24,000 bases of DNA from an uncultured Selenomonadales bacterium (GCA_946407015.1 CAMJML010000019.1:40831-64830), one strand, 5' to 3'. Shown: positions 2,201-23,387, counted from the stretch's first letter. Program-made: numbers and translations. Notes: generated from the sequence alone by a model not told the origin.

Positions 2201-3292
2201 ATGCTTAATATTGCATTCAGAGTCGATGGCGGGAAGTCTACAGGGTTAGGACATCTTGTGCGTTGCTTATCTTTAGCTCGCACATTCAGGTCAGCTGGCT
2301 ATAATGTCTATTTTATCAGTAAGTTAGCTGAAGGGATTGGATTAGTCCGCAACGAGCGATTTGATGTTTTTCCCATTCCTTCTGTCGAGCAAGTAACAGA
2401 AGGCTTTTTTTATGGAGATGAAGTTCATTTAGCCGAAGAAGCCAAGCGTATGGCGACAATATTAGCCGATACTCAGACCGATGTCTTGATTATCGATTCG
2501 TATAATGTTAATAAAGACTATTTCTTGACACTAAAGAGCTGTACGAAAAGGATAGTCTATATCGATGACATTAATAAATTTAACTATCCAGTAGATATAG
2601 TCATTAATGGGAATATCACAGGTGAATACCTGAGTTATGAGAAATATACGGATACACAGGTGTTGTTGCTTGGTCCTAACTATAATATGATTCGCGACGA
2701 ATTTAGTAAGCTGCCTGGACGTAACTTAAGCACAAATGTAAATGAAGTGCTGATTACTACCGGTGGGTCAGATCCATACAGGATTACCGATAAGTTATTA
2801 GGGTTTTTGCTAACAAGTCATCAGTTTATAGATTTGCGCCTGAATGTTTTAGTTGGGAGTGGTTTTTCTCAGGTTGAGTATTTAAGCAATTTAAGTTATC
2901 AACATGATAATATTTTTCTTTATGCTAACTCATCTATTGTTGATCGTGCATCGAATATCATGTATTCGAATCTTTCAACAATAATGCTACGGTCTGATAT
3001 TGCAATATCAGCTGGTGGAAGTACGCTCTACGAATTGGCTGCTTGTGGTACGCCTACCATGGCTTTTATTATGGCGGACAATCAAGAATTTATAGTGACG
3101 AAGATGGCTGAAATGGGATATATAAAAAACTTAGGGTGGTATAGCGGACTGAAAAAAGAGCAAGCTCTTGGGCAATTTCTCCAGCTTATGAATGATTTTG
3201 AACTACGTCGACAAATGAGTTGTAGGGGACAGACCTTGATTGATGGTAAAGGAAATCAGCGGATCGTTAAGGCTATTATGGAAGATTTATAA
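2201..3292 (+). CDS. pseG: UDP-2,4-diacetamido-2,4,6-trideoxy-beta-L-altropyranose hydrolase (PseG/SpsG-like, GT-B fold)
   Basis: 363 aa. The N-terminus IAFRVDGGKSTGLGHLVRCLSLA is the typical PseG/SpsG start. A C-terminal GGSTLYELAACGTP motif is present. RBS GAGAGGA. Confidence 0.8.
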   Translation: MLNIAFRVDGGKSTGLGHLVRCLSLARTFRSAGYNVYFISKLAEGIGLVRNERFDVFPIPSVEQVTEGFFYGDEVHLAEEAKRMATILADTQTDVLIIDSYNVNKDYFLTLKSCTKRIVYIDDINKFNYPVDIVINGNITGEYLSYEKYTDTQVLLLGPNYNMIRDEFSKLPGRNLSTNVNEVLITTGGSDPYRITDKLLGFLLTSHQFIDLRLNVLVGSGFSQVEYLSNLSYQHDNIFLYANSSIVDRASNIMYSNLSTIMLRSDIAISAGGSTLYELAACGTPTMAFIMADNQEFIVTKMAEMGYIKNLGWYSGLKKEQALGQFLQLMNDFELRRQMSCRGQTLIDGKGNQRIVKAIMEDL

Positions 3293-3314
3293 ATCTAGGA
3301 AGGTGAAGTCTACA

Positions 3315-4466
3315 ATGGGAGATACATTTTTGCCATATGGCCGTCAATGGTTAGATGAAGATGATATTAATTCTGTAATTGAAGTGCTACAATCGGATTA
3401 TTTAACAACTGGTCCTAAAATTGCGCAATTCGAAAAAGAATTTGCACAATATGTTGATGCAAAATTTGCTGTGGCTCTTGCGAACGGAACAGCTGCATTG
3501 CATGCAGCATGCTTTGTAGCTGGCATAACAAAAGGTGATGAAGTTATTACGACACCGATCACTTTTGCAGCTTCTGCTAACAGCGTGCTATATTGTGGTG
3601 GTACACCAGTTTTTGCTGACATAAACCCATATACCTATAATATAGACCCAGCTCAAATTCGCAAAAAGATTACTAGCAAAACAAAAGCTATTATTCCAGT
3701 ACATTTTGCTGGGCAACCTTGCTATATGGATGAAATCAGCGAAATTGCACAAGAATATGATTTGGTCGTGATCGAGGACGCAGCGCATGCTTTAGGCGCA
3801 GATTATAAAGGAAGGCGCATTGGAAGCATTTCTGATCTGACAACATTTAGCTTTCATCCCGTTAAGCATATTACAACGGGTGAGGGTGGGATGGTTACAA
3901 CAAATGATGAGAAACTGTATAAGAAACTGTTGTTATTTCGAAGCCATGGAATTACCAGAGAGAAAGAATCTCTTCGGTGCGATCAAGGCGCCTGGTTCTA
4001 TGAGCAGCTAGATTTAGGCTATAATTATCGAATGACCGATATTCAGGCTGCATTGGGACTTAGTCAACTGCGTAAGTCAAATCGCTTTTTAGAAAGACGT
4101 CGAGAAATAGCTGCTTTGTATAATGAAGCTTTTGCTGACATAGAAAGCCTCATTATTCCTTTCCAGGCTAATGAGTGTCACTCCAGCTGGCACCTATATG
4201 TTATTCAATTAAAGCTAGAGAAGCTTAGCATTGCCCGAAAAGGTTTTTTTGAAGCTATGCTAGCAGAAAATATTGGTGTCAATGTTCACTATATCCCTGT
4301 TTACAAACATCCCTATTACCAAGATAACGGATATCGAAATACAAAATGCCAATATAGTGAGCAGTATTATGAGAGAGCAATAACGCTGCCTATTTTCCCG
4401 AAGATGTCAAATCAAGATGTTGCAGAAGTAGTTAAAGTTATTAAACAAATACTTGGAAGATCTTAG
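3315..4466 (+). CDS. pseC: UDP-4-amino-4,6-dideoxy-N-acetyl-beta-L-altrosamine transaminase (DegT/DnrJ/EryC1 family)
   Basis: The ORF 3240..4466 is trimmed to the ATG at 3315, which follows RBS AGGAAGGTGAAG. This start gives MGDTFLPYGRQWLDEDDI..., the canonical PseC N-terminus. The PLP-lysine context SFHPVKHITTGEGG is present. Confidence 0.85.
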   Translation: MGDTFLPYGRQWLDEDDINSVIEVLQSDYLTTGPKIAQFEKEFAQYVDAKFAVALANGTAALHAACFVAGITKGDEVITTPITFAASANSVLYCGGTPVFADINPYTYNIDPAQIRKKITSKTKAIIPVHFAGQPCYMDEISEIAQEYDLVVIEDAAHALGADYKGRRIGSISDLTTFSFHPVKHITTGEGGMVTTNDEKLYKKLLLFRSHGITREKESLRCDQGAWFYEQLDLGYNYRMTDIQAALGLSQLRKSNRFLERRREIAALYNEAFADIESLIIPFQANECHSSWHLYVIQLKLEKLSIARKGFFEAMLAENIGVNVHYIPVYKHPYYQDNGYRNTKCQYSEQYYERAITLPIFPKMSNQDVAEVVKVIKQILGRS

Positions 4467-4563
4467 CTCAGACTGCTCATCAATGTTGGCCCAGGCAAAT
4501 CAGAGCCACAATCTATCTTCAGCTATTACGTGCAGGCTAAGTACGTATTCTTATTTTTTATAA

Positions 4564-4604
4564 CATAACCACTCAAGCAGGCGCAGCTTACTTGAGTGGT
4601 TATG
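4564..4604. terminator. Hairpin between convergent pseC and crp/fnr genes
   Basis: A 14-bp perfect stem CATAACCACTCAAG / CTTGAGTGGTTATG encloses a 13-nt loop. TTTATT follows on the + strand. The stem abuts the stop codon of the minus-strand gene. Confidence 0.6.
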
Positions 4605-4605
4605 T

Positions 4606-5298
4606 TTATTCCGCCTCCTTTTGTAATCGTGGCAGGTTCAAAATCTTCACCGACGTCCGGTAAAACTCAATTATTCCATCATCGCGCATGCGTCCGAGTT
4701 CGCGGGACAGGGCGGTGCGGGAGACACTGAGAAAGTCAGCTAATTGGTTGCGCTTTAGCGGCAGGGTAAAGGTCAGGGTTTTGTTTTCTTTATATTGTTC
4801 CAGCAGGTAAACGGCTATTTTTTTACGCATGCTTTTAATGGAAAGATACTCGGTTTTTCGGTTGAGCATGAGTGCTTTTGTCGAGATGATCACCAGCAGG
4901 TTTTTGACTAACTGGTTCTGGCTGGTGCACACATTGGCGCATTTGCCGATAATTTTTTCCGGGTCGAGAAATACGGCCGAGCAGGGGGTATGGGCAAGCA
5001 CGGAAGCCGGCCAGGTGTTTTGGGGTGAAAAAGCGATGATTTCGCCGAAAAGATCGCCTTGGACGAGGTTGGTCATCACAATGCGGCTGCCTGAGGCTGT
5101 TTCTTTGAGTACTTCGGCCTCACCGCTCAGCAGGATACCTAAGCCGGTGAACGGAGTTCCCTGGACGGTGATGTAGCTGTTCTTGCTGTAATGCTGTACT
5201 CTAGGCTTTAGGCAATCCCACATGACGGCTAAGGATTCGGCAGGAATATGCTGAAACAGGGCGGAAGTGAAGAGCTGTTTAATTAATTTATTATCCAT
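4606..5298 (-). CDS. Crp/Fnr family transcriptional regulator
   Basis: 230 aa. It has an N-terminal cNMP-binding-like beta-roll (GDLFGEI) and a C-terminal HTH (RNQLADFLSVSRTALSRELGRMRDDGII). RBS AGGTGA lies 6 nt upstream of the ATG. Confidence 0.85.
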   Translation of the reverse strand: MDNKLIKQLFTSALFQHIPAESLAVMWDCLKPRVQHYSKNSYITVQGTPFTGLGILLSGEAEVLKETASGSRIVMTNLVQGDLFGEIIAFSPQNTWPASVLAHTPCSAVFLDPEKIIGKCANVCTSQNQLVKNLLVIISTKALMLNRKTEYLSIKSMRKKIAVYLLEQYKENKTLTFTLPLKRNQLADFLSVSRTALSRELGRMRDDGIIEFYRTSVKILNLPRLQKEAE

Positions 5299-5318
5299 AA
5301 CAGATCACCTGATAATTT

Positions 5319-5334
5319 GGTAGCCATGGCTACC
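5319..5334. promoter_or_regulatory. Perfect 16-bp palindrome GGTAGCCATGGCTACC in the divergent intergenic region (candidate Crp/Fnr-type operator)
   Basis: Read directly from the sequence. The core GTAGC-N4-GCTAC has the 5-N4-5 geometry of FNR-type sites. It lies 8 bp upstream of the regulator's RBS and 67 bp upstream of the 4Fe-4S gene start. Confidence 0.4.
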
Positions 5335-5346
5335 GATTTTTATTTT

Positions 5347-5363
5347 CTATTGTATTACAATAG
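5347..5363. promoter_or_regulatory. Perfect 8-1-8 palindrome CTATTGTA-T-TACAATAG, containing a TACAAT -10-like hexamer
   Basis: Read directly from the sequence. It lies 38 bp upstream of the ATG at 5401. Confidence 0.3.
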
Positions 5364-5400
5364 GGTCAGGAAAACAAACAGAAGATTGGAGGGGCTAGTC

Positions 5401-6072
5401 ATGCTAACCCGTAAAATAAGTAAGATTGATGAAGAAAAGTGCATCGGTTGTGGAATTTGTACGCAAACCTGTCATGAGGGCGCGCTGAAGTTAGTCAATG
5501 GAAAAGCCAAACTGGTTTCGACCACCCAATGTGACGGACTGGGGCGGTGCTTGCCGGTCTGTCCGCAAGGAGCCATCACACTGGAGGACCAGCCTGTCGC
5601 AGATATTCCGGCTGCTGTACCGATGCAGCCAGGCTTTGGCTGTCCCGGCAGCCGGGCAGCCAGGATTGAACGCGATAACGCTCAGCCAGCTGAGCGCGTC
5701 GCAGTTCAATCCCAGTTGCAGCAATGGCCTTGTCAGATTAAACTGGTACCTCCAGCAGCACCCTATTTTAACCAGGCAGATCTGCTGATTGCCGCTGACT
5801 GTACTGCTTATGCGTATGCCAATATGCACCAGGATTTCATGCAGGGAAAAATCACCCTGATCGGTTGTCCAAAGCTGGATGAAGGCAATTATGCGGATAA
5901 ATTGGGTCAAATCTTCCAGGCTAATCACATCAACAGCATTACCGTTGTACGGATGGAAAAGCCTTGCTGCGGCGGCTTAGTCCATGCAGCTCAGCAGGCA
6001 CTGCTGCATAGCGGGAAAGAGATTCCGTTTCAGTTTGTGGTGATTGGGATTGATGGCAGAATTCTTGAGTAA
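5401..6072 (+). CDS. 4Fe-4S dicluster domain protein with a conserved Cys-containing C-terminal domain (FrdX-like iron-sulfur protein)
   Basis: The ORF 5317..6072 is trimmed to the ATG at 5401, which follows RBS GGAGG. CIGCGICTQTC and CDGLGRCLPVCP are ferredoxin-type motifs. The C-terminal segment LLIAADCTAYAY...LIGCPKLDE...KPCCGG is conserved in proteins I recall next to Crp/Fnr (HcpR-type) regulators. Confidence 0.75.
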   Translation: MLTRKISKIDEEKCIGCGICTQTCHEGALKLVNGKAKLVSTTQCDGLGRCLPVCPQGAITLEDQPVADIPAAVPMQPGFGCPGSRAARIERDNAQPAERVAVQSQLQQWPCQIKLVPPAAPYFNQADLLIAADCTAYAYANMHQDFMQGKITLIGCPKLDEGNYADKLGQIFQANHINSITVVRMEKPCCGGLVHAAQQALLHSGKEIPFQFVVIGIDGRILE

Positions 6073-6093
6073 GGGATTTTAGGGAACGATATT

Positions 6094-6339
6094 GAACCAC
6101 AGAGGGCGCAGAGGACACAGAGGGGTACGGGGGCGCAATGCTATTGCGCCTGGGGTTTATGAATCCGAGGTAGTATGTTGTATGCTTGCTAATTCGTAAT
6201 CCTATTGTTTAAGAACGAAATAATTTAATAGTGGGAAAAGGTTGACCTCAGCCAAGGCTGAGGTTTTTTCTATAAAAAAATCGCAATAAGATTACGACTC
6301 AAAAATCCCACTGTGTCCTCCGTGTCCCCTCTGTGGTTC
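6094..6339. repeat. Copy A of the 9-bp-module inverted-repeat element (MITE-like nested palindrome, about 246 bp)
   Basis: Left arm: GAACCACAGAG GGCGCAGAG GACACAGAG GGG (6094-6125). Right arm: CCCACTGTGTCCTCCGTGTCCCCTCTGTGGTTC (6307-6339). An inner inverted repeat pairs CGTAATCCTATTG (6195-6207) with CAATAAGATTACG (6284-6296). There is a hairpin GGCGCAAT-GCT-ATTGCGCC at 6132-6150. Confidence 0.65.
6246..6269 (+). terminator. Hairpin plus T-run at the centre of repeat copy A
   Basis: CCTCAG-CCAAGG-CTGAGG is followed by TTTTTT. Confidence 0.5.
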
Positions 6340-6516
6340 GATTCCGTTGCAGATATAATTCGCCGGGCCTGGGAATATATATTGGGTAATATGCCTTAGG
6401 GGTAAAAGCACCTTTTAAACAATTGGGGAATAGGCTGACATTGATGAACATTGCTCATGCACGCTGCGTTTTCGTTCACATAGAATGCCTTGGGGGCTAC
6501 AAGAAAGGAAGATGGT

Positions 6517-7896
6517 ATGTTAACCAGCATTGTCATGTTAACCTACAATAAAATTGCCCATACCCAAACTTGTATTGAGAGTATCCGTGAGTACACGGAG
6601 CAAGGGACTTATGAATTGATTGTTGTGGATAATGGATCGACCGATGGAACACTGGAATGGCTGCAGCAGCAGCCTGATATTCGTGCCATTCTGAATACTG
6701 AAAATCAGGGTTTTCCTAAAGGCTGTAACCAGGGAATCGCCATTGCTAATGGCGATAGCATTCTCTTATTAAACAATGACACCATTGTGACCCGCAACTG
6801 GCTGCCGAACCTGACCACCTGTTTATTTAGCAGCCCTGATATCGGAGCGGTTGGGGCAGTAACCAATAATTGTTCGTATTCCCAATCCATACCGGTCAAT
6901 TATCAGAATACCCCTGAGATGCAAAGCTTTGCTGCGGCCTACAACCAGTCTGATCCGGCCAAGTGGGAAGAACGCTTAAAGCTGGTTGGCTTCTGCATGC
7001 TGATTAAAAAGAGTGTGGTCGATGAGGTTGGTTTATTAGATGAGGTATTCACTCCAGGCAATTATGAAGATGATGATTACTCGCTGCGCATCCGGTTGGC
7101 CGGTTACCGGCTAATGCTCTGCACCGATACCTTTATCCATCATTTCGGAAGTATTTCTTTTAAAGATAATAATGCGTTGTTTGCCCAATTGCTGCGTGAT
7201 AATGCTAAAAAGTTTGAAGATAAATGGGGATTTAATCCGGTCTACTCCACCTTTATGCGCAACGAAATTGTTGCGATGATGGACCCGGTGTCAGAGCGGA
7301 CGATGCGTGTGTTGGAGGTTGGCTGCGCCTGTGGCGGAATCCTGCTCAAAATCAAGCATACCTTTAAGGAGGTTGAGCTTTACGGTATCGAATTAAATGA
7401 AAATGCGGCACGCAGTGCCCGGCTTATTGCCGATGTGACGGTCGGGGATATTGAACAGCTGCAGCTCAATTATCCGGCGGAGTTTTTTGATGTCATTATT
7501 ATGGCTGACGTATTGGAGCATATGGCAGACCCTTGGAAAATCCTGAAACAACTGCGGAATTATTTGCGTTCTGACGGCAAAGTCGTTGCCAGTATCCCGA
7601 ATGTCATGCATTTTAGCGTCATCCGGGATATGCTGAATGGGTTTTGGAATTATCAGGATGCCGGTATTTTGGACCGGACGCATCTGCGCTTTTTTACCTT
7701 GCATGAAATCGGCAAAATGTTTGGCGAATGCGGTTTTACCAATCTCGTTTTTAACTTTACCAGCATTCCGGCTTCTGAAGGGGATTTGAAGTTTATCAAT
7801 GACCTGGCCGAAATTACCAACAAGAATTTGATTAGCCAATATATGTCTTATCAATATCTGGTTAAAGCCTCGAAAATACCGGAAGCGGCTCCATAA
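6517..7896 (+). CDS. Glycosyltransferase family 2 fused to a class I SAM-dependent methyltransferase domain
   Basis: The ORF 6490..7896 is trimmed to the ATG at 6517, which follows AAAGGAAG. The N-terminal half has VMLTYNK...VVDNGSTDGT...EDDDY (GT-A, DxD). The C-terminal half has VLEVGCACGG (SAM motif I) and DVIIMADVLEHMADP. Confidence 0.8.
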   Translation: MLTSIVMLTYNKIAHTQTCIESIREYTEQGTYELIVVDNGSTDGTLEWLQQQPDIRAILNTENQGFPKGCNQGIAIANGDSILLLNNDTIVTRNWLPNLTTCLFSSPDIGAVGAVTNNCSYSQSIPVNYQNTPEMQSFAAAYNQSDPAKWEERLKLVGFCMLIKKSVVDEVGLLDEVFTPGNYEDDDYSLRIRLAGYRLMLCTDTFIHHFGSISFKDNNALFAQLLRDNAKKFEDKWGFNPVYSTFMRNEIVAMMDPVSERTMRVLEVGCACGGILLKIKHTFKEVELYGIELNENAARSARLIADVTVGDIEQLQLNYPAEFFDVIIMADVLEHMADPWKILKQLRNYLRSDGKVVASIPNVMHFSVIRDMLNGFWNYQDAGILDRTHLRFFTLHEIGKMFGECGFTNLVFNFTSIPASEGDLKFINDLAEITNKNLISQYMSYQYLVKASKIPEAAP

Positions 7897-7952: not shown

Positions 7953-8190
7953 AAGAACCTATTGCTTAGGTCTGTGGTTGAAAGTCGATGCCAGTCGCAG
8001 GCGAAACGATCCACGTAAGGAGTCCAAAAGCGGCTCTGATCATGGTGCGGCTTAGAGGTAAGACCTGCCGGGAATCTTGTACATATTTTATTGCCCGAGA
8101 GTTGAAGTAGTGAGGGGATAGTTCCTAGTAGCGAAACTTCCAGCAGGCGGGTGTGGGGTCAAAGACCAGGTCGGCTAAGCAGTGGTCCTT
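7953..8190 (+). ncRNA. Candidate structured 5' leader or cis-regulatory RNA domain of unknown class upstream of the zinc-ribbon gene
   Basis: About 270 nt separate the predicted TSS from the ATG at 8220, with no ORF. Bases 7953-7969 pair with 8175-8190: 14 Watson-Crick pairs, 1 G-U, 1 mismatch and 1 bulge. This closes a GC-richer domain of about 240 nt. I could not assign a known riboswitch or RNA family. Confidence 0.4.
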
Positions 8191-8507: not shown

Positions 8508-8531
8508 CCAAACCGAATATTTGCTGATAGC

Positions 8532-8553
8532 GCCCGGGATTCCCGGGCTTTTT
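8532..8553 (+). terminator. Rho-independent terminator
   Basis: GCCCGGG-ATT-CCCGGGC is followed by TTTTT. Confidence 0.75.
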
Positions 8554-8656
8554 ACTTTTCTGACACTAGGCGTCAAATAATTGACACTTTCGCTTTGATT
8601 TTGAAGATGAATAATGAATACTGTCCATTTTGTCGCGCTATAATGTAAAAAAGTAC

Positions 8657-8686
8657 TTGATTGATAATACACCCCCTATGTATAAT
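8657..8686 (+). promoter_or_regulatory. Candidate promoter TTGATT-N18-TATAAT for the first binding-protein gene
   Basis: Hexamers read directly from the sequence. The spacer is 18 nt. Confidence 0.45.
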
Positions 8687-8727
8687 TATTTATGTGAATG
8701 CAATACATATTTGAGGGGGTTCTTATT

Positions 8728-9507
8728 GTGTCAAAAAAGGTGATCGCCTTGATCGTGCTGGGCATGTTTGTACTGGCACTTGGCCTGGCCGGTTGCGGCG
8801 GCCAAAAACAACAGCCGGCTGCACAGGCTAAAGTATTAAAAGTGGGTTCTGATACTGCGTTTGCTCCATTTGAGTTCCAGGATGAAAAAACCAAAGAATA
8901 TGTTGGTTTTGACATGGACTTAATCAAAGCAATCGGGAAACAAATGGGTTATGAAGTGCAAGTTCAAAGTATGAACTTTGACGGACTTATTCCTGCATTA
9001 GAGGCCGGCAATATTGATGCCACTATTTCGGCTATGACCATTACGGATGAACGGGCTCAAAAAGTAAACTTCTCCAAACCATACTACAAATCCGGTTTAA
9101 CCATGGTTGTTAAAACCAATAACGACAGTATTAAATCCTTCAAAGACCTGGAAGGAAAAAGCATTGGCGTTCAAATCGGTACAACCGGTGCCGATGAAGC
9201 TAAAAAAATCAAAAACGCAAAAATTCGTGAGTTCAATACCGCTCCTGAAGCCATCCTGGAACTTAGGGCCGGTGGCGTAGATGCCGTCATTAATGATATG
9301 CCGGTTAATGAATATTATCTGGCTCAAGGTGGCAGCAAAGATGCTAAAAGTGTTGGCGACCGTTTGACTTCCGAAGATTATGGTATTGCGACTGCTAAGA
9401 AAAATACCGAATTAAACGAAAAAATCAATAAAGCCTTAGAAGAGCTGAAGAAAAACGGTGAATATGAAAAAATCTATGTAAAATGGTTTGGTAAAAAACC
9501 TGAATAA
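8728..9507 (+). CDS. Amino acid ABC transporter substrate-binding lipoprotein (polar amino acid, family 3), paralog 1
   Basis: The ORF 8698..9507 is trimmed to the GTG at 8728, 8 nt after RBS GAGGGGG. This gives MSKKVIALIV...LGLAGCGG (signal peptide plus lipobox), parallel to the paralog. The SBP_bac_3-like body has FAPFEF, GFDMDL and NFSKPYY. Confidence 0.85.
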   Translation: MSKKVIALIVLGMFVLALGLAGCGGQKQQPAAQAKVLKVGSDTAFAPFEFQDEKTKEYVGFDMDLIKAIGKQMGYEVQVQSMNFDGLIPALEAGNIDATISAMTITDERAQKVNFSKPYYKSGLTMVVKTNNDSIKSFKDLEGKSIGVQIGTTGADEAKKIKNAKIREFNTAPEAILELRAGGVDAVINDMPVNEYYLAQGGSKDAKSVGDRLTSEDYGIATAKKNTELNEKINKALEELKKNGEYEKIYVKWFGKKPE

Positions 9508-9516
9508 TCGGGCTAC

Positions 9517-9550
9517 AAAACCCGGCACAGAATTGTGCCGGGTTTTCTTT
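9517..9550 (+). terminator. Rho-independent terminator
   Basis: AAAACCCGGCACA-GAAT-TGTGCCGGGTTTT is followed by CTTT. Confidence 0.8.
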
Positions 9551-9742
9551 GTCCAGGAAGCTATATTCATTGGAATGAAGTTCATGAATAAATTATGAAC
9601 GAAATATACAGAAAGAAAGACGACTTTTCATCCAATTTGGCGCACCGGATAGCTAATGAAGGGATTAGACAGGTAGTGCAAGGAAATCGTCTATTATTCA
9701 GATTAATCTAACAATACGGGGGGATTTGCAGGCAGTCTGTAC

Positions 9743-9770
9743 TTGCTGAGTACTATATTTATAGTATAAT
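9743..9770 (+). promoter_or_regulatory. Candidate promoter TTGCTG-N16-TATAAT for the second binding-protein gene
   Basis: Hexamers read directly from the sequence. Confidence 0.45.
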
Positions 9771-9802
9771 TATTAAAGAATTACATCTAGGGGGTACATA
9801 TT

Positions 9803-10573
9803 TTGTCGAAAAAAATTGCAGCGTTGTTAATCGTTGTCTTGGTGTTCACACTTGGCTTGGTTGGCTGCGGTAAGCAGACCAATACCAGTACGGCCAAAGT
9901 CCTTAAAGTTGGTGCTGAAACCACTTTCCCACCTTTTGAGTTTCAGGATGAAACCAGCAAAGAGTATGTTGGCTTTGACATTGATCTAGCCAAAGCAATC
10001 GGGAAACAAATGGGTTATGAAGTGCAAATTCAAAACATCGGTTTCGACGGTTTAATCCCTGCACTGGATGCCGGGAATATTGATCTGATTGCATCGGCTA
10101 TGTCCATTACGGACGAGCGGGCCAAAAAAGTGAATTTCTCCAAGCCATACTATAAATCCGGTTTATCGATTGTGGTTCAAAGCAGCAATAACACCATTCA
10201 CAGTTTTAAAGATCTTGAAGGCAAAAAAATTGCCGTTCAGATTGGCACCACCTCAGCGGAAGAAGCTCGTAAAATTACCAATGCTCAAGTTCGTGAGTTC
10301 AACAGCAATTCCGAAGCTTACATGGAATTGAAAAACGGCGGTGTGGATGCCGTTGTGAACGACTTACCGGTAAATTCTTACTATTTAACTAAAACCGGCG
10401 GTAAAGATGCCAAGCTGGTAGGCGAAGTAGCTAACGCGGAAGATTATGGTCTGGCGACAGCGAAGAAAAATACTGAACTGAATGAAAAAATTAATAAAGC
10501 CTTAGATGAACTCAAGAAAAACGGTGAATACGATAAAATTTATGTAAAATGGTTTGGCAAAAAGCCTGAATAA
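9803..10573 (+). CDS. Amino acid ABC transporter substrate-binding lipoprotein, paralog 2
   Basis: 256 aa with a TTG start after RBS AGGGGG. The signal peptide and lipobox are TLGLVGCG. It is collinear with paralog 1 along its whole length. Confidence 0.85.
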   Translation: MSKKIAALLIVVLVFTLGLVGCGKQTNTSTAKVLKVGAETTFPPFEFQDETSKEYVGFDIDLAKAIGKQMGYEVQIQNIGFDGLIPALDAGNIDLIASAMSITDERAKKVNFSKPYYKSGLSIVVQSSNNTIHSFKDLEGKKIAVQIGTTSAEEARKITNAQVREFNSNSEAYMELKNGGVDAVVNDLPVNSYYLTKTGGKDAKLVGEVANAEDYGLATAKKNTELNEKINKALDELKKNGEYDKIYVKWFGKKPE

Positions 10574-10584
10574 ATAAGTAAGCG

Positions 10585-10616
10585 AACCCGGCGGATGACG
10601 CCGGGTTTATTTTTTA
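10585..10616 (+). terminator. Rho-independent terminator
   Basis: AACCCGGCG-GATGA-CGCCGGGTT is followed by TATTTTTT. Confidence 0.8.
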
Positions 10617-10754
10617 TGCTTATGCTGGTTACGGGCTTTTCTGAGCATAGATCAGTGAAATCTTGTATTCAGAATACAGTATATTTATAAGACCACGAAA
10701 TAATAAAGATACACACCGCCTGGATTCTGGGGTATAATGATTTTATATAGGAGG

Positions 10755-10798
10755 CAAAGAAGCTTAAGGCGTATTTTGTGCGCTTTTAAGCTTCTTTG
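10755..10798 (+). other. 13-bp perfect hairpin (CAAAGAAGCTTAA / TTAAGCTTCTTTG) downstream of a TATAAT box; possible attenuator or small transcript end
   Basis: Stem read directly from the sequence. The loop is 18 nt and can extend through GCG/CGC pairing. TTGTTTG follows. A TATAAT lies at 10733-10738. Confidence 0.3.
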
Positions 10799-10851
10799 TT
10801 TGTCTGCCGTTTGGAAATTTTTTGTAAGGATGGGAGGGGTGTAATAAAAGG

Positions 10852-10880
10852 TTGACATGTCCTTTCCGTGTGCATATAAT
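10852..10880 (+). promoter_or_regulatory. Consensus promoter TTGACA-N17-TATAAT for the permease/ATPase operon
   Basis: Both hexamers match consensus perfectly and the spacer is 17 nt. Confidence 0.7.
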
Positions 10881-10942
10881 CATTATGTGTATTTATATTC
10901 AATAAAATTAGGTAATTATTAATAAATTAAGGGTGAAAGTGA

Positions 10943-11608
10943 ATGAATTTTGATTTTGATTTGATTGTCCGTTCCTTTCCGCTGCTGTTGATGGGAGCAG
11001 GAGTGACCATTCAGATTAGTGCGCTGAGCGTTAGCTTTGGCTTACTCATCGGGATGTTTGTAGCGATTGCTCGCTTATCCAAGCTTTGGCCTGTTAAATT
11101 TCTCGCCGGAATTTATGTTGATTTTATCCGCGGAACTCCGCTGTTGGTTCAGATATTTATTATCTATTTTGCTCTGCCTATGATTTTAGGCACCCGGATT
11201 GATCCGTTTATTGCGGCCATCACGGCATGCAGTATTAACAGTGGTGCTTATGTGGCTGAAATCTTCCGGGCCGGTATCCAATCCATTGATAAAGGACAGA
11301 TGGAAGCCGGACGCTCCTTGGGAATGACTTGGGCGCAGACGATGCGGTATATCATTCTGCCGCAGGCTTTTAAACGGATTATTCCGCCTCTGGGCAACGA
11401 GTTTATTGCCATGCTGAAAGATTCTTCGTTGGTTTCGGTGATTGGGTTTGAAGAGCTTACCCGCCGCGGCCAGCTGATCATAGCCCGTACTTATGGCTCC
11501 TTTGAAATTTGGCTGACGGTAGCCTTTATCTATCTCATCATGACACTGACAATTTCCCGCTTGGTTGATTTTCTGGAGCGGAGGTACAAAATTGATGATA
11601 AGCATTAA
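10943..11608 (+). CDS. Amino acid ABC transporter permease (His/Glu/Gln/Arg/opine family)
   Basis: 221 aa and multi-helix. It has the EAA-loop-like segment [25 protein letters not shown] typical of this permease family. Confidence 0.9.
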
Positions 11609-12314
11609 AAATATTCACAAAAAATTTGGCAATCTCCATGTGCTCAAAGGCATCAACGCTTCTGTACAGGAAAAAGAAGTGGTCGTGGTCATCGGTCCGA
11701 GCGGATCAGGAAAAAGCACCCTGCTGCGCTGTATTAACTACCTGGAGGAGCCCACTGAAGGCGAAATTATTGTAGATGGGATTCCTCTTACCAATCAGTC
11801 CAACATTAATAAGGTCCGCGAGGAAGTGGGGATGGTTTTCCAGCGGTTCAACCTGTTTCCCCACATGTCGGTTATGGAGAACATCACCTTAGCGCCAATT
11901 CAAGTGCGGAAGATGGCTAAGGCCGACGCTGAAAAAATTGCCCTGGATTTGCTGGTCAAAGTCGGACTGGAGGATAAAGCCAGAGCTTATCCTGAACAGC
12001 TTTCCGGTGGGCAGCAGCAGCGGGTAGCCATTGCCCGGGCATTGGCTATGCGGCCGAAAATCATGCTGTTTGACGAACCAACTTCGGCGCTGGATCCGGA
12101 AATGGTCAATGAGGTTTTGGAAGTTATGAAAACGCTGGCCCGTGAAGGGATGACCATGGTGGTGGTAACCCACGAGATGGGCTTTGCCCGCGAGGTTGGC
12201 GACCGGGTCATTTTCATGGATGAAGGCAAGATTGTCGAAGAAGGAACACCTGAGGCGATCTTTAGTCATGCTCATGAAGAGCGGACCAAGTCTTTTTTAT
12301 CCAAAATATTATAA
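11595..12314 (+). CDS. Amino acid ABC transporter ATP-binding protein
   Basis: The ORF 11565..12314 is trimmed to the ATG at 11595, which follows GGAGCGGAGG and overlaps the permease 3' end. Walker A is GPSGSGKST, the signature is [15 protein letters not shown], and Walker B is [11 protein letters not shown]. Confidence 0.9.
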
Positions 12315-12325
12315 GCTGGTATTCA

Positions 12326-12354
12326 TTGACAATTATAACCAGAAGTGCTATACT
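12326..12354 (+). promoter_or_regulatory. Promoter TTGACA-N17-(TGc)TATACT for csp
   Basis: The -35 is perfect, the spacer is 17 nt, and an extended -10 TG is present. Confidence 0.65.
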
Positions 12355-12413
12355 CATATTCGTGGCCCAGAATTATGGTGCGCCAGTTTATTTTTTCTAG
12401 GAGGAGTTTCAGA

Positions 12414-12614
12414 ATGATTGGTAAAGTTAAATGGTTCAGCGCGGAAAAAGGTTATGGTTTTATTGAAAGAGAAGACGGTGGCGATGTATTCGTTCATTTC
12501 TCCGCTATCCAGGACCAAGGTTTCAAAACTTTAACTGAAGGTCAATCCGTAGAGTTTGACATCGTTGAAGGCGCTCGTGGTCCTCAAGCTGCTAACGTTA
12601 CAAAGTCAGCTTAA
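12414..12614 (+). CDS. Cold shock protein (CspA family)
   Basis: The ORF 12345..12614 is trimmed to the ATG at 12414, which follows RBS AGGAGG. It gives 66 aa, [20 protein letters not shown]...DVFVHFSAI, containing the RNP1 and RNP2 motifs. Confidence 0.9.
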
Positions 12615-12633
12615 TTCAATAAACAGCGATCCT

Positions 12634-12658
12634 GCCCGGCTCATGAAGCCGGGCTTTT
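12634..12658 (+). terminator. Rho-independent terminator of csp
   Basis: GCCCGGC-TCATGAA-GCCGGGC is followed by TTTT. Confidence 0.8.
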
Positions 12659-12681: not shown

Positions 12682-12790
12682 TAACCGCGAAGTACTTGAA
12701 GGACTCAAAGGGGTACGACAATTTCTGGCGCGATATTATCGCGCCGGTTTTTTTGCATTCCCTTAGCGTACGTTGAGTCTTTTGTGGTTA
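12682..12790. repeat. Copy B of the 9-bp-module inverted-repeat element (variant core), enclosing a terminator-like hairpin
   Basis: Left arm: AACCGCGAAG TACTTGAAG GACTCAAAG GGGTACG (12683-12717). Apex hairpin: GGCGCGAT-ATT-ATCGCGCC followed by GGTTTTTTT (12727-12754). Right arm: CCCTTAGCGTACGTTGAGTCTTTTGTGGTTA (12760-12790). Confidence 0.55.
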
Positions 12791-13444: not shown

Positions 13445-13478
13445 ATAGCCCGTACCATGTTAAGATGGTATGGGCTAT
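13445..13478 (+). terminator. Hairpin after hpf
   Basis: A 14-bp stem ATAGCCCGTACCAT / ATGGTATGGGCTAT (one G:T pair) encloses loop GTTAAG. A weak T-tract TTATGTTT follows. Confidence 0.55.
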
Positions 13479-13534
13479 TTATGTTTCGCTAGAATGCTGT
13501 TAAGCACAGAGTAAGCAGAAGAATAATAAAAATT

Positions 13535-13565
13535 AAGCGCGATCCACTGTCGCGCTTGTTTTTTT
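13535..13565. terminator. Bidirectional terminator-like hairpin
   Basis: AAGCGCGA-TCCACTG-TCGCGCTT is followed by GTTTTTTT on the + strand and preceded by AATAATAAAAATT. It can therefore also serve the minus-strand small ORF. Confidence 0.65.
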
Positions 13566-13614
13566 GTAACTATTCTGGCTTTCTGCGGGGAAGCGTTTGT
13601 TTTATGGATTGCTT

Positions 13615-14137: not shown

Positions 14138-15664
14138 ATGACAGACAGAAAATTTACACGTCGTAATTTCATTAAGGCTTTAGGCGGGGCAAGTGTGGTT
14201 GGTGCCGGCGCTGTTGTGGCCGGCTGTGCCAGCGAACCGGCCGGTGGCAAAGGGTGGATGCCCAATCAATATAATGTTGCGGCCAACTGGCCGGTACAGG
14301 TTAAAGGCCGGGTGCCGATTGACAGCAGCAATCCGGCAATTGACCGGGATGACACCAAGTGCATTCTCTGCGGTCAGTGCCTCGAAGTGTGCAAAAATGT
14401 GGTGTCCGTATATGGCTACTATGAATTGCCGATCCAAAATGACATTACCTGTATCCATTGCGGCCAATGTACCATGTGGTGCCCGACAGGAGCCATTACC
14501 GAACGCAATGAGATCAAGAAGGTTCAAGCCGCATTAGCGAGTGCCGATCAGCATGTTATTGTGCAAACAGCGCCGGCCATCCGGGTGGCTTTGGGCGAGG
14601 AGTTCAATTTACCGCCAGGCAGCTTAGTGCAGGGCCAGCAGGTAACCGCCTTAAAAAAGGCCGGTTTTGATGCGGTCTTTGATACCAGTTGGAGTGCTGA
14701 TCTTACCATTATGGAAGAAGCCTCCGAGTTGATTAAGAGGCTGACCACAGGTAAAGCTTTGCCGCACTTTACTTCGTGCTGCCCGGGCTGGGTAAAGTTT
14801 GCCGAATATTTCTATGCCGACTTACAGCCCCATCTTTCCTCCTGTAAATCGCCACAGCAAATGCTGGGTGCTGTGGCTAAATCATACTATGCCAAAGAGA
14901 AAGGAATTGCGCCTGAACAAATTTTTTCCGTGGCAGTCATGCCGTGCACGGCGAAAAAATTTGAATGCCAGCGCCCGGAAATGAATGCGGCCGGCATTTT
15001 ACGGGGTAATCCGGCTATCCGTGATGTTGATGTTGTTTTAACAACCCGTGAGCTGGCCAATCTGTTAAAGTCGAATGGCATTGATCTGAGCCGCTTGGTC
15101 GACACACCTTATGATTCAGTACTTGGCGAGAGTACCGGAGCGGGAGTGATTTTTGGCGCCACCGGCGGGGTGACGGAAGCGGCGGTACGGACCGCTTACT
15201 ATCTGGTTACCCGTCAAGATCCGCCGGCTGCATTGCTGCAATGGGAAAATGTACGGGGATTGAAGGGCGTTAAAGAAGCCAGTGTTGAGCTTCCAGGGGT
15301 CGGGACAGTCAAAGTGGCGGTTTGCCACGGCCTCAGGGATGCCCGGGTGGTTCTCGAAAAGGTCCGCAAACAGCAGTCCGACTGGCACTTTATTGAGTTT
15401 ATGGCCTGCCCGGGCGGCTGTATTGGCGGCGGCGGTCAGCCCCGTACTTCGCTGCCGCCTTCGGATGAGGTACGCAAGGCCAGAATGGCAAATCTTTATA
15501 AGCTGGATGGAACAGCCGTCAAGCGGGCCAGTTACCAAAATAAAGAAGTGATGGACTTATATCAGAAATTTTTGCATGCTCCGCTCAGCGAGGAGTCGGA
15601 AAGCCTGCTGCATACCCATTATGTTGATCGTAGTCATCAACTAAAACCTAAAGAGAAAGTGTAA
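14138..15664 (+). CDS. Tat-exported [FeFe]-hydrogenase, large subunit fused to a small-subunit-like C-terminal domain; possible lipoprotein
   Basis: 508 aa. The Tat motif is TRRNFIK, followed by an h-region and VVAGC (lipobox-like). There are two 4Fe-4S motifs (CILCGQCLEVC, CIHCGQCTMWCP). The H-cluster motifs are FTSCCPGW, MPCTAKKFE and EFMACPGGCIGGGGQP. The C-terminal DLYQKFLHAPLSEESESLLHTHYVDRS parallels the separate small subunit at 19086. Confidence 0.9.
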   Translation: MTDRKFTRRNFIKALGGASVVGAGAVVAGCASEPAGGKGWMPNQYNVAANWPVQVKGRVPIDSSNPAIDRDDTKCILCGQCLEVCKNVVSVYGYYELPIQNDITCIHCGQCTMWCPTGAITERNEIKKVQAALASADQHVIVQTAPAIRVALGEEFNLPPGSLVQGQQVTALKKAGFDAVFDTSWSADLTIMEEASELIKRLTTGKALPHFTSCCPGWVKFAEYFYADLQPHLSSCKSPQQMLGAVAKSYYAKEKGIAPEQIFSVAVMPCTAKKFECQRPEMNAAGILRGNPAIRDVDVVLTTRELANLLKSNGIDLSRLVDTPYDSVLGESTGAGVIFGATGGVTEAAVRTAYYLVTRQDPPAALLQWENVRGLKGVKEASVELPGVGTVKVAVCHGLRDARVVLEKVRKQQSDWHFIEFMACPGGCIGGGGQPRTSLPPSDEVRKARMANLYKLDGTAVKRASYQNKEVMDLYQKFLHAPLSEESESLLHTHYVDRSHQLKPKEKV

Positions 15665-17813: not shown

Positions 17814-19073
17814 ATGAAGGGATTTCAAGCTAATGAACAAACGAACATTATTGAAATTAACCGTAAGAAATGTAAAGGCTGTGATTCGTGCAAATCCTTC
17901 TGCCCGTCAGCTGCTATTCAAGGCAAATATGGAGCTATTCATTCGATTAATTCGGAACAATGTATATTTTGCGGACAATGTTTAATCAATTGTCCGTTTG
18001 GTTCAATCGAAGATACTGTCGATGCTGTGGAATCTGTTATAGCTAAGCTGCGCAATCAACAATTGACCGTTGTGGCGACGATTGCGCCGTCTGTCCGGGT
18101 CGCGATCGGCGAAGAGTTTGGCATGAAGCCGGGTACTTTAGCGACAGAACAGCTCTATGGAGCCTTAAAGCAAGCCGGGTTTAAAATTTTTGACACCAAT
18201 TTTGCCGCTGACCACACCATTATGGAGGAAGGCAGCGAGCTGATCGCTAAAATCCGCCATTATCTATTAGGAGAGCCGGCCGAGCATGAATTGGGTGCTT
18301 TGCCGCAGTTTACATCTTGCTGTCCGGGCTGGGTTCGTTATGTCGAACTGTATGCGCCGGAAATCCTCCCGCATTTGTCTTCCGCCAAATCCCCGATGAT
18401 GATGGCCGGAGCACTGGCTAAAACGTACGGTGCTACGGATATTTGGCATGTCCGGCCGGAAAACATGGTTGTTGTTGGAGTGATGCCCTGTACCAGTAAA
18501 AAATTTGAGGCCTCCCGGCCTGAGTTTAGCAGTGCGGCGCATTATTGGCAGCAGCGTGGCGGGACGGCACATTATCCTGATGTGGACGTTGTGCTGACAA
18601 CCCGTGATCTTGCCCGGCTATTTAAAAAGCTGAATATTGATCTCAATCAGGTAGAACCCTTTACGGATGCCGACAATCCATTGGCTCAATACAGCGGTGC
18701 CGGCACGATTTTCGGCAACACCGGCGGCGTGATGGAAGCCGCCCTCAGAACAGCTTATTTTGTGATTACCGGACAAGAGCTGCCTTTTCTGGAATATACG
18801 CCGGTGCGCGGTCTCAAAGGCCTGAAAGAGGCTGAGGTTACACTGAAGGATGCCAAGACCGGCAAGGTAATTAACTTAAAGGTGGCGGTTGTCCATGGCA
18901 TCAAAGAAAACTTGAAACCAGTGATCGAGCAAGTGGCGGCCGGGCGATCTCCTTACCATTTTATTGAGGTCATGAACTGTCCGGGAGGCTGTGTCAACGG
19001 GGGAGGTCAGCCTATTAATCCGATGGGAACCTCCTGGACCGGAAACTGGAAAGCGTTATTACCTTGGACATAG
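17814..19073 (+). CDS. hydA: Periplasmic-type [FeFe]-hydrogenase large subunit (no signal peptide)
   Basis: 419 aa. There are two 4Fe-4S motifs (CKGCDSCKSFCP, CIFCGQCLINCP). The H-cluster motifs are FTSCCPGW, MPCTSKKFE and EVMNCPGGCVNGGGQP. RBS GAGGAGG. The protein ends shortly after the H-cluster motif, as in Desulfovibrio HydA. Confidence 0.9.
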   Translation: MKGFQANEQTNIIEINRKKCKGCDSCKSFCPSAAIQGKYGAIHSINSEQCIFCGQCLINCPFGSIEDTVDAVESVIAKLRNQQLTVVATIAPSVRVAIGEEFGMKPGTLATEQLYGALKQAGFKIFDTNFAADHTIMEEGSELIAKIRHYLLGEPAEHELGALPQFTSCCPGWVRYVELYAPEILPHLSSAKSPMMMAGALAKTYGATDIWHVRPENMVVVGVMPCTSKKFEASRPEFSSAAHYWQQRGGTAHYPDVDVVLTTRDLARLFKKLNIDLNQVEPFTDADNPLAQYSGAGTIFGNTGGVMEAALRTAYFVITGQELPFLEYTPVRGLKGLKEAEVTLKDAKTGKVINLKVAVVHGIKENLKPVIEQVAAGRSPYHFIEVMNCPGGCVNGGGQPINPMGTSWTGNWKALLPWT

Positions 19074-20165: not shown

Positions 20166-20185
20166 GTTTTGGGGAGTGTTTAGTT

Positions 20186-20321
20186 TGGTGCTGTGCCTTT
20201 TGTAGTTCGTTGGGGATGGCGGCGGGGAATTCTGCCGCTACGGACGTTCCTTACGCCGTTACCGGCAGCCAAGCTGCCGACGGCTGTAGTCACAAGTCCC
20301 GCGGCAGAAATCCCCGCCGCC
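20186..20321. repeat. Giant palindrome unit 1 (degenerate core, 21-bp outer stem)
   Basis: The outer stem pairs GGCGGCGGGGAATTCTGCCGC (20218-20238) with GCGGCAGAAATCCCCGCCGCC (20301-20321), with 1 mismatch. The inner left arm is identical to unit 2. The inner right arm has diverged by substitutions and small indels. Bases 20186-20279 form a direct repeat of 20411-20498. Confidence 0.75.
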
Positions 20322-20364
20322 AGTGCCGTGGGTTTATCTTTTTTAATACCTTTTCCTCCAGTAG

Positions 20365-20385
20365 CCTTTGTGTCCTCTGCGATTC
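20365..20385. repeat. Solo right-arm fragment of the 9-bp-module repeat family
   Basis: CCTTTGTGTCCTCTGCGATTC has the reverse complement GAATCGCAGAG GACACAAAG G, which matches the arm modules of copies A and C. Confidence 0.4.
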
Positions 20386-20410
20386 AATAATCATTCCTTT
20401 GTGCTTAATA

Positions 20411-20558
20411 TGGTGCCTTTTTAGTTCGCTGGGGGTGGTGACGGGGAATTCTGTCGCTACGGACGTTCCTTACGCCGTTACCGGCAGCCAAGCTGCCGGT
20501 AACGGCGTAGGGAACGTCCGTAGCAGTGGATTTTGCTGCCGCCGGCAATAAGCGAACT
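20411..20558. repeat. Giant palindrome unit 2 (33-bp near-perfect stem, 3-nt loop, within a roughly 136-bp imperfect palindrome)
   Basis: Bases 20456-20488 (GCTACGGACGTTCCTTACGCCGTTACCGGCAGC), loop CAA, and 20492-20524 form 32 Watson-Crick pairs plus one T:G (20470:20510). The outer flanks AGTTCGCT (20423-20430) and AGCGAACT (20551-20558) also pair. Confidence 0.8.
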
Positions 20559-20660
20559 TAGTGTGTCAAGCCCTTTTTTAATTTCTCGTTTTTATCTTGT
20601 TCATATATTATCGATTCAACATGCATATACTAACTTTATGGATTCGGGGAATGGACGTTT

Positions 20661-23270: not shown

Positions 23271-23387
23271 AACCGCAGAGGACACAGAGTACGCAGAGGG
23301 AAATCGGAGGAATTAGAACGCGGTCGTAACCGCGTTAAGGATCATTAAGATCTTAAATCCTCTGCGATCTCTGCGTACTCTGCGGTT
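23271..23387. repeat. Copy C of the 9-bp-module inverted-repeat element, between secA and prfB
   Basis: Left arm: AACCGCAGAG GACACAGAG TACGCAGAG GG (23271-23300). Central hairpin: AACGCGGT-CGTA-ACCGCGTT (23317-23336). Right arm: CCTCTGCGATCTCTGCGTACTCTGCGGTT (23359-23387), followed by CATAAGTTTTTAT. Confidence 0.65.

Follow-up and report, generated by a model that had tools for sequence, protein, structure and literature searches.

A 24,000-nucleotide (24-kb) stretch of DNA from an uncultured Selenomonadales bacterium (GCA_946407015.1 CAMJML010000019.1:40831-64830), called the window here, carries a family of small palindromic elements dispersed between its genes. The elements are discrete units with fixed termini, AACC at one end and GGTT at the other. 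They are gained or lost at the junction between a T-run and a YA dinucleotide, with no duplication of the target, and they decay with age. Each arm of an element begins with AACC and continues, usually, with three CRCAGAG heptamers separated by 2 unconstrained spacer bases (1 in other lineages). Two such arms are inverted around a variable core. We think it probable that the family is a non-autonomous mobile palindromic element and that its heptamers are putative recognition sites for a factor acting in trans.

Filled and empty sites in relatives

The syntenic loci of close relatives were found by exact-sequence look-up of the window Csp and HPF proteins. These relatives include Sporomusaceae strain FL31 (BIFV01; PMC6406122), whose loci are designated L337 and L353; the window SecA protein is 80% identical to that of Pelosinus baikalensis, which places the source of the window in the Negativicutes (Sporomusaceae). 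The gene context of the copies was taken from open reading frames (ORFs) and the Pfam labels of orthologs. Site A lies 3' of a gene encoding a 4Fe-4S protein, site B 3' of csp, site C between secA and prfB, and site D 3' of hpf, the ribosome hibernation factor gene. At all four sites, elements are present in some relatives and absent in others.

At site B, the filled and the empty forms can be aligned across the junctions. The empty form, present in FL31 (L337) and in L342, reads ...GAGAGAACGATGTTTTT|CAATGTTAATAAATTTG, and the filled form, present in L345, reads ...ACGATGTTTTT[AACCGCAAAG ... CTCTGTGGTT]CAATATCAATAAATTTG. The filled junctions are TTTTT[AACC..GGTT]CAAT and the empty junction is TTTTT|CAAT; following ACGATGTTTTT, the empty form continues as |CAATG. 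Thus, the unit is exactly AACC...GGTT, it sits between the T-run and CAAT, and the target is not duplicated. When the two 100-nt flanks of site B were joined into a 200-nt BLAST query, 201 nt aligned to the empty genomes at 92% identity.

The other sites vary in the same manner. Site D is filled in the window, L336, and L339, and empty in L337, L338, and L342. Site C reads GGTTT[AACC..GGTT]CATAAG in the window versus GGTTT|TATAAG in a Massilibacillus metagenome-assembled genome (MAG; L156); elements occupy it in L354 too, and in Pelosinus (L122), where the copy has CACAAAG modules in a mixed 8/9-nt register. At site A, the relatives L353, L354, and L356 possess a native terminator, AACCTCAGCC..GGCTGAGGTTTTTT, directly 3' of the stop codon. 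The element follows this terminator in L354 and L356, and FL31 (L353) has nothing beyond a remnant of it. Finally, in the gap between the cytochrome-b-type gene and secA, the relatives carry a full element or its right half, and the window carries a unique insert of ~400 nt that contains a solo arm. Over the same synteny, the arms in 20 kb of L354 number 14, spread over 8 sites, versus 2-3 partial arms in FL31. In locus L352 (CP053389.1), a block of ABC-transporter, csp, hpf, and hydrogenase genes has been inversely duplicated together with its elements (3420-7427 versus 8530-11401).

Arms at the same site are not identical: CACAGAG in L339 corresponds to CGCAAAG, CTCAAAG, or CGCGAAG in L338, L345, and the window. 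These differences indicate that old copies decay, mainly through transitions. The preliminary description of this DNA proposed that empty sites be sought in orthologous regions, and the close relatives supply both filled and empty ones. Because units are present or absent at orthologous intergenic sites, they are not conserved regulatory parts of the neighboring genes.

Copies in the window and constraint on the arms

The window contains 7-9 arms, all intergenic and 3' of + strand genes. The preliminary description listed three full copies and a solo arm. All four are real and were correctly placed, and pattern counts, matrix scores, and, for the full copies, predicted folds back them; a fourth full copy, the decayed copy D, had to be added. 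The pattern CRCAGAG-NN-CRCAGAG, with at most 2 mismatches, has 9 matches in the window versus 0.22 expected from shuffles, and AACCRCAGAG, with at most 1 mismatch, has 8 versus 1.55 expected. We scored the arms with a position weight matrix (PWM) trained solely on arms of related genomes, for which shuffles gave a maximum of 13.8 bits and a mean of 2.2. The left and right arms of copy C score 50.2 and 44.6 bits, the left arm of copy A 49.7, the left and right arms of copy B 18.1 and 14.8, and the solo arm 17.9. The right arm of copy A, at 12.5 bits, is slightly under the shuffle maximum, and it is assigned by its orthology to the relatives' right arm. Copy D is too degenerate for the PWM and is supported by orthology to intact elements in L336 and L339. 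Fold stability relative to shuffles gives z = -9.5 (A), -8.8 (C), -4.7 (B), and -3.5 (D), and a repeat search of the window recovers the arm pairs as inverted repeats.

Copy A extends from 6095 (AACC) to 6338 (GGTT), 244 nt. Its left arm (6095..6122, + strand) comprises AACC and then, in 9-nt modules, CACAGAG, CGCAGAG, and CACAGAG, with gg and ga as spacers. A linker and hairpin follow (6123..6150, + strand): GGGTACG and then a GGCGC..GCGCC hairpin at 6132-6150, both common to copy B and to the relatives' elements. An inner inverted repeat (6195-6207 / 6284-6296) encloses the native terminator of the 4Fe-4S gene, with its hairpin at 6244-6265 and its T-run ending at about 6271; this is the ortholog of the terminator in L353, L354, and L356. 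The right arm (6307..6338, - strand) contains a 2-nt register slip; its orthologs are the right arms of the L354 and L356 elements. The preliminary description was accurate about the 6132-6150 hairpin, the inner inverted repeat, and the central hairpin with its T-run, as well as about the GGGTACG shared with copy B, and interpreted the whole as a nested palindrome. That interpretation does not hold. The central hairpin with its T-run belongs to the upstream gene, and the left arm lies upstream of this terminator, unlike the element of the relatives, so copy A is a composite that encloses the terminator rather than a purpose-built nested palindrome. As a separate matter, the terminator itself (6244-6265 and its orthologs in L353, L354, and L356) starts AACCTCAG and ends CTGAGGTT, giving it family-like AACC/GGTT termini, which may be a coincidence or may mark an ancient derivative.

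Copy B (12683..12789) is a complete AACC..GGTT element with decayed arms at 12683-12711 and 12761-12789, the GGGTACG linker, and a GC hairpin followed by a T-run at 12725-12755. Its modules had been described as sharing the CAGAG core; instead they read CGCGAAG, CTTGAAG, and CTCAAAG, that is, they are decayed. The intrinsic terminator of csp (12634..12658, + strand) is outside the element and marks its insertion context. Similarly, the intrinsic terminator of hpf (13445..13485, + strand) is upstream of copy D, so that copies B and D are both placed beyond the terminators of the genes they follow (12634-12654 and 13445-13478 in the narrower delimitation). Copy D (~13501..13590) is strongly decayed. 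Its sequence reads TAAGCACAGAG TAAGCAGAA ..., then a hairpin with a T-run (13534-13565), then ...TTCTGCGGGG. Copy C (23271..23387) is complete, with its left arm at 23271-23298, a central hairpin at 23317-23336, and its right arm at 23360-23387; it starts 10 nt past the secA stop codon and ends 31 nt ahead of the prfB start.

The solo arm (~20354..20387, - strand) reads TTGAATCGCAGAG GA CACAAAG ... and lies in the lineage-specific insert (20180-20560), which takes the place of the family element of the relatives. The insert also contains a direct repeat of 81-87 nt (20193-20279 / 20413-20498; identity, 93%) along with a near-perfect palindrome of 33 nt (20456-20524). No homolog of the insert was found in any fetched locus.

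The 254 arms gathered over all loci divide into 162 with exactly three modules, 88 with two, and 4 with four. Arms are 27-31 nt long and elements are ~70-130 nt long, apart from the 244-nt composite copy A. The flank 5' of the arms is T-rich, with T at position -1 in 53% and at position -2 in 62% of 251 arms. Insertions follow a T-run (TTT|YA), are intergenic, and typically lie directly 3' of the terminator that belongs to the preceding gene. The three clean junctions lack any target-site duplication, and none of 26 other elements inspected is flanked by direct repeats of at least 2 nt.

In this genus, the core usually begins with GGGTAC(G) (GGGTACG or GGGTAC stands directly 3' of arms at several sites), continues with a GCGCRAT..ATYGCGC hairpin, and sometimes ends in a T-run. 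In copies B and D, the core thus described is a GC stem-loop followed by a U-run, the form of an intrinsic terminator; copy C has no U-run. In relatives, the T-run may lie on the other strand, as an A-run, or may be absent. Thus, the terminator property is optional and not consistently oriented, and the earlier suggestion of terminator modules applies to some cores and not to the family.

These data bear on the idea that the copies are native RNA modules of the neighboring genes (terminators, attenuators, or stabilizing 3' hairpins) that were inherited by descent and not inserted. Each window copy does follow a + strand gene, as the preliminary description stated, two cores resemble terminators, the predicted folds are very stable, and copy C is the one structure separating secA from prfB, where two genera carry an element. 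The empty orthologous sites found for all four copies largely refute the idea. Moreover, copies B and D lie past fully formed native terminators, core direction is mixed in the relatives, the spacer bases show no co-variation that would keep them paired, and no Rfam family matches. We regard this origin as decidedly unlikely.

The arms also reveal what is conserved. The heptamers match between the two arms of paired elements. For the spacers, complementarity in true versus randomly re-paired arms was 0.27/0.28, 0.47/0.50, 0.40/0.27, and 0.40/0.39. Because the heptamers are matched and the spacers are no more complementary than random, the heptamers are the conserved objects, and the stem is interrupted at regular intervals. 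Such a pattern would also suit arrays of sites for a DNA-binding protein of the host (a nucleoid-associated protein, a heptad-polymerizing partition protein or repressor, or gyrase) that are kept for the organization of the chromosome or phage genome, with insertions and deletions representing site turnover. That solo three-module arms are common and stand alone, that solo phage arms show no clear strand bias relative to genes, and that each arm uses one heptamer, with lineages differing (CRCAGAG, CACGGAT, CACGAAG) as if protein and site co-evolve, all accord with binding arrays. Yet transitions erode copies freely, as in B, D, and the L338 and L345 left arms, with neither purging nor repair, and copy number differs several-fold among close relatives. 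Furthermore, the same heptamer in Bacteroidota, Gemmatimonadota, and Bacillota would demand a shared protein, and no candidate was found. We judge binding arrays to be an unlikely explanation of the family and favor a mobile element.

The window has other features as well. A small zf_Tbcl-type gene is preceded by a full-length raiA RNA motif at 7961-8183 (+ strand), which scores 192 bits against Rfam RF03072 (gathering score 101). The csp 5' region (12265-12657, + strand) gives a sub-threshold match to the cspA thermoregulator (57 bits, gathering score 78). Two tandem paralogous SBP_bac_3 genes (8698-9507 and 9803-10573) share 78-87% DNA identity, and relatives have one or two of them. Two paralogous [FeFe]-hydrogenase-like genes (14138-15664 and 17814-19073) have stretches that are roughly 72-80% identical.

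Known repeat classes and spread beyond the genus

The preliminary description called the family MITE- or REP-like. The discrete units that are present or absent at orthologous sites agree with that label; the lack of target-site duplication, of a REP foot, and of a single-arm palindrome does not. Repetitive extragenic palindromic (REP) sequences are defined by an unpaired GT[AG]G or CGTC foot, by a unit that is palindromic by itself, and by the genes for REP-associated tyrosine transposases (RAYTs, or TnpA-REP) that they flank (PMC3733652, PMC6006769). The family has termini AACC and GGTT and no such foot. In some copies, CCAC...GTGG has a polarity opposite to that of a "double-foot" REP, and the CGC variants are without it. 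A single arm is three direct heptamer repeats and not a palindrome; only pairs of arms fold. Nothing similar appears in the REP table that Quentin et al. 2018 curated manually (PMC6006769), even in its classes 2.6 and 3 ("CnGA foot").

Resemblances to REP sequences, REPINs (inverted REP doublets), and bacterial interspersed mosaic elements (BIMEs) exist nonetheless: high copy number, intergenic placement mainly 3' of ORFs, and occurrence both singly and in inverted pairs whose folds are long hairpins. The recurrent linkers (GGGTACG and the GCGC hairpin) recall BIME mosaics, and insertion with no target duplication and co-evolution within a genome recall RAYT-mobilized REPs and REPINs. In contrast to REPs, which are specific to a species or genus, the arm described here is common to several phyla, and no RAYT gene flanked by arms turned up in the fetched loci. 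A tblastn search with a Y1 transposase across 3.9 Mb of loci returned only two IS200 copies. A link to RAYTs via the Y1 transposase located 3 kb from csp in L355 was considered and rejected: the gene is an ordinary IS200 equivalog, and its ends are unrelated to the arms.

[quoted passage not shown] Bacterial MITEs also occur in phages of the host (doi 10.1101/2024.01.18.576219). They differ in that the present elements show no target-site duplication at the clean junctions, have internally repetitive arms, have an interior that is not conserved between copies outside the genus, and are spread across phyla, which is unusual. PATE-type elements derived from IS200/IS605 would have ends like the subterminal hairpins of a resident IS200/IS605 and would insert 3' of a fixed tetra- or pentanucleotide with no duplication. 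The family shows no duplication and a T-rich 5' flank; it has no similarity to the IS200 ends in L355, and its target is loosely defined. In all, we file the family apart from REPs and MITEs proper, as the same kind of small dispersed palindromic element.

Heptamer repeats of other types exist. Arrays of GGGNATC with a preferred unit number are dispersed in Xanthomonas and Nostoc (PMC4692102). Together with the cyanobacterial STRR heptamers and SDR elements, they resemble the arms in having units of 7-9 nt in a preferred small number, in lying between co-oriented genes, and in being shared by distant phyla. They differ in being contiguous tandem arrays with no AACC terminus, not inverted pairs around a core. 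Some of these arrays are explained by G-quadruplexes, which the sequences of this family cannot form. The heptad operators of ribbon-helix-helix proteins (omega repressor, pSM19035) and the 7-2-7 sites of NarL consist of consecutive 7-bp units, direct and inverted, spaced at less than one helical turn. The arms may be likened to them in having conserved units and free spacing bases; such operators, however, are few sites upstream of specific genes and not hundreds of insertion-polymorphic hairpins, and their sequences are dissimilar. T4-type PeSLs and the start-associated sequences of mycobacteriophages are specific to a phage cluster and oriented with transcription. Arms in phage contigs may be compared with these cassettes in that they mark gene boundaries, sometimes at start codons, many times per genome; unlike them, the arms also occur in bacterial chromosomes and show no clear strand bias.

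Searches of Rfam 15 at gathering score and at permissive thresholds gave no match on the window copies and only generic miRNA-precursor matches on the Bacteroides (L203) and phage (L024) copies. In the searchable literature, literal arm strings led to no description; the only match was a Bacteroides fragilis PCR primer whose position falls by chance within one of these repeats. Other candidates, namely the DnaA box, attC, piggyBac-type TTAA, a T7-like promoter, and the StyLTI site (CAGAG), were set aside as misfits with the CGC variants, the non-TTAA termini, and the inverted pairs in chromosomes.

In IMG/VR, AACCRCAGAG-NN-CRCAGAG occurs in at least 120 phage contigs. Because a scrambled core of the same composition gave 44 distinct matches by chance, we relied on a third module and on an inverted terminus within 300 nt instead of on raw counts. 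In the 9-nt register, the true core has at least 125 distinct matches, at least 97 of them with a third module and at least 13 with an inverted terminus; in the 8-nt register, the corresponding values are 127, 59, and 50. The 10-nt register yields 13 matches (0 with a third module, 1 with an inverted terminus), and the scrambled core yields 1 and 0 by the two criteria. Both the 8-nt and the 9-nt registers are real, and the 10-nt register is at chance level. Thus, the strict 9-nt register that seemed unusual in the preliminary description holds in the window, and the wider family uses an 8-nt register just as often. The arm-rich contigs derive from genuine tailed phages: they have terminase, portal, and capsid genes, and their arms are located at gene boundaries, including those between these genes.

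Bacterial matches outside the genus came from BLAST against plasmid and chromid records. In Gemmatirosa kalamazoonensis, 40 kb of sequence includes several elements of compact or nested form; Bacteroides finegoldii and B. ovatus have elements that include a perfect 31-bp stem after nadC (fold z = -12.8); Pseudoalteromonas shioyasakiensis has a tandem array of elements; and Nostocales and Oscillatoria have complete or solo elements. A Thermodesulfobacteriota MAG has one copy. Near-identical arms are distributed over Bacillota, Bacteroidota, Gemmatimonadota, Cyanobacteriota, and Pseudomonadota, in addition to many phages, represented by hundreds of contigs, and the GC content of the hosts ranges from 35% to 73%. 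No arm was found among 5,426 complete Escherichia coli genomes. In the P. shioyasakiensis megaplasmid (CP076682.1, L202), the array at 2850-3700 comprises at least 4 tandem units of an element plus a conserved spacer of ~105 nt, with an EAL-domain gene on one side and a dptF-containing locus on the other.

Other heptamers occupy the same frame. A sister family with heptamer CACGGAT and the same architecture of AACC plus three modules is present in 84 phage contigs (L048, L037, L422, and loci L421-L498), often beside CRCAGAG arms and sometimes abutting them. Rarer heptamers in the AACC-CRC frame are CACGAAG, CACCAAG, CGCGAAT, and CACGGGG. On the minus strand of L048, ~1659 nt from the end, an arm is split by a small hairpin insertion that duplicates GCAG (AACCGCAG|ccccgaaagtcttcggggt|GCAGAACGCAGAG); this insertion is reminiscent of very small mobile hairpins.

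Could so simple a sequence arise locally, in a manner independent of sequence, for example by replication slippage that expands a heptamer next to AACC followed by fold-back copying, with the likeness across phyla being convergent, as for STRR and GGGNATC repeats? The number of modules does vary between 2 and 3 in related phages (L111 versus L006 and L101), the two registers coexist, many heptamers share one architecture, and the Xanthomonas and Nostoc arrays provide a precedent. Two observations make a local origin highly improbable: the identical heptamer and AACC terminus recur in unrelated phyla far more often than the scrambled control, and the whole element, both arms and core, comes or goes as one unit.

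Approximately 14% of phage arms (L003-L121; e.g., L011, L027, L033, L042, L079, and L109) start 5-11 nt past an ATGA start/stop overlap, with a Shine-Dalgarno sequence upstream and the T-T-E-x-T-E frame favored by 29 to 6. This placement, the absence of stop codons in every frame of the modules, and the fact that CACAGAG to CACGGAG is a synonymous change in the T-T-E frame would fit a coding repeat, translated as x-T-E or x-A-E. We consider it extremely improbable that the family is one. The window copies are all intergenic, past stop codons and terminators, both arm orientations occur, an 8-nt register cannot hold a reading frame, and the frame of the arm differs between the homologous phage genes of L033 and L079.

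Proposed mobilization and meaning of the family

How would a mobile element of this type move? A protein acting in trans would read the heptamers, with a transposase or recombinase being the most plausible, and it would act on folded single-stranded or cruciform DNA. Mobilization could resemble that of REPINs by RAYTs or that of IS200/IS605 ends by TnpA, which would account for the missing duplication. A folded single-strand or cruciform intermediate is how the known systems that make no duplication (IS200/IS605 and REP/RAYT) proceed, and the factor would move or copy the element. Once inserted, the element would be transcribed as a long imperfect 3' hairpin, and a core with a GC hairpin and a U-run would serve as a back-up terminator or as a block to 3' exonucleases, making the element tolerated or mildly useful.

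Several observations weigh against a mobile element read by such a factor. No gene or transposase flanked by arms, and no cognate insertion sequence with the same ends, was found in the ~5 Mb of fetched loci. The longest enclosed ORFs (9, of at least 180 aa) of 15 arm pairs separated by 0.5-3.5 kb resemble, as read by eye, ordinary phage genes, and, as noted, the sole nearby Y1 transposase belongs to an ordinary IS200 whose ends are unrelated. The copy cleanly missing from site B in FL31 is decayed in its nearest relative. Hence, its loss could reflect hairpin-stimulated replication slippage at TT microhomology and not enzymatic excision; the event could be a gain or a loss. Occupancy of the secA-prfB site in two genera may mean long retention for a function instead of mobility. 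Core orientation is mixed (T-run versus A-run), so a terminator role is not general, and solo phage arms lie 87 sense versus 65 antisense to genes, no clear strand bias given crude ORF calling in GC-rich contigs. Finally, 97.4% of MITE families are confined to a genus (doi 10.1101/2024.01.18.576219), and thus an arm that crosses phyla needs special explanation. Phage-borne horizontal transfer or a shared host factor could supply it.

There is a substantial chance that the family belongs to an undescribed, widely distributed superfamily. The last four heptamer bases vary by subfamily (AGAG, GGAT, GAAG, CAAG, GAAT, and others). We put forward tentatively, as a possibility we would not yet bet on, a bolder version: that a large undescribed superfamily, defined by a T-rich flank, AACC, and three CRC-heptamers, extends over at least 5 bacterial phyla and many tailed phages and implies an unknown recognition or mobilization system whose specificity co-evolves with the heptamer. 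Such a system might rest on a transposase for hairpin or single-strand DNA that would form a new class, or on a polymerizing DNA-binding protein that phages carry.

Small dispersed palindromes are normally specific to a species or genus and are understood by way of partner enzymes, which are RAYTs in the case of REPs and insertion-sequence transposases in that of MITEs. Locally, the present family acts like both, being dense, intergenic, insertion-polymorphic, and hairpin-forming, yet it breaks both sets of rules. For the genomes that carry them, the elements give rise to spurious ORFs and add hairpins and terminators after genes. They could also serve as markers that link phages to their hosts. 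If a dedicated factor does read the heptamers, the family would represent a new system of mobilization or DNA organization, one with a very simple and possibly re-targetable code.

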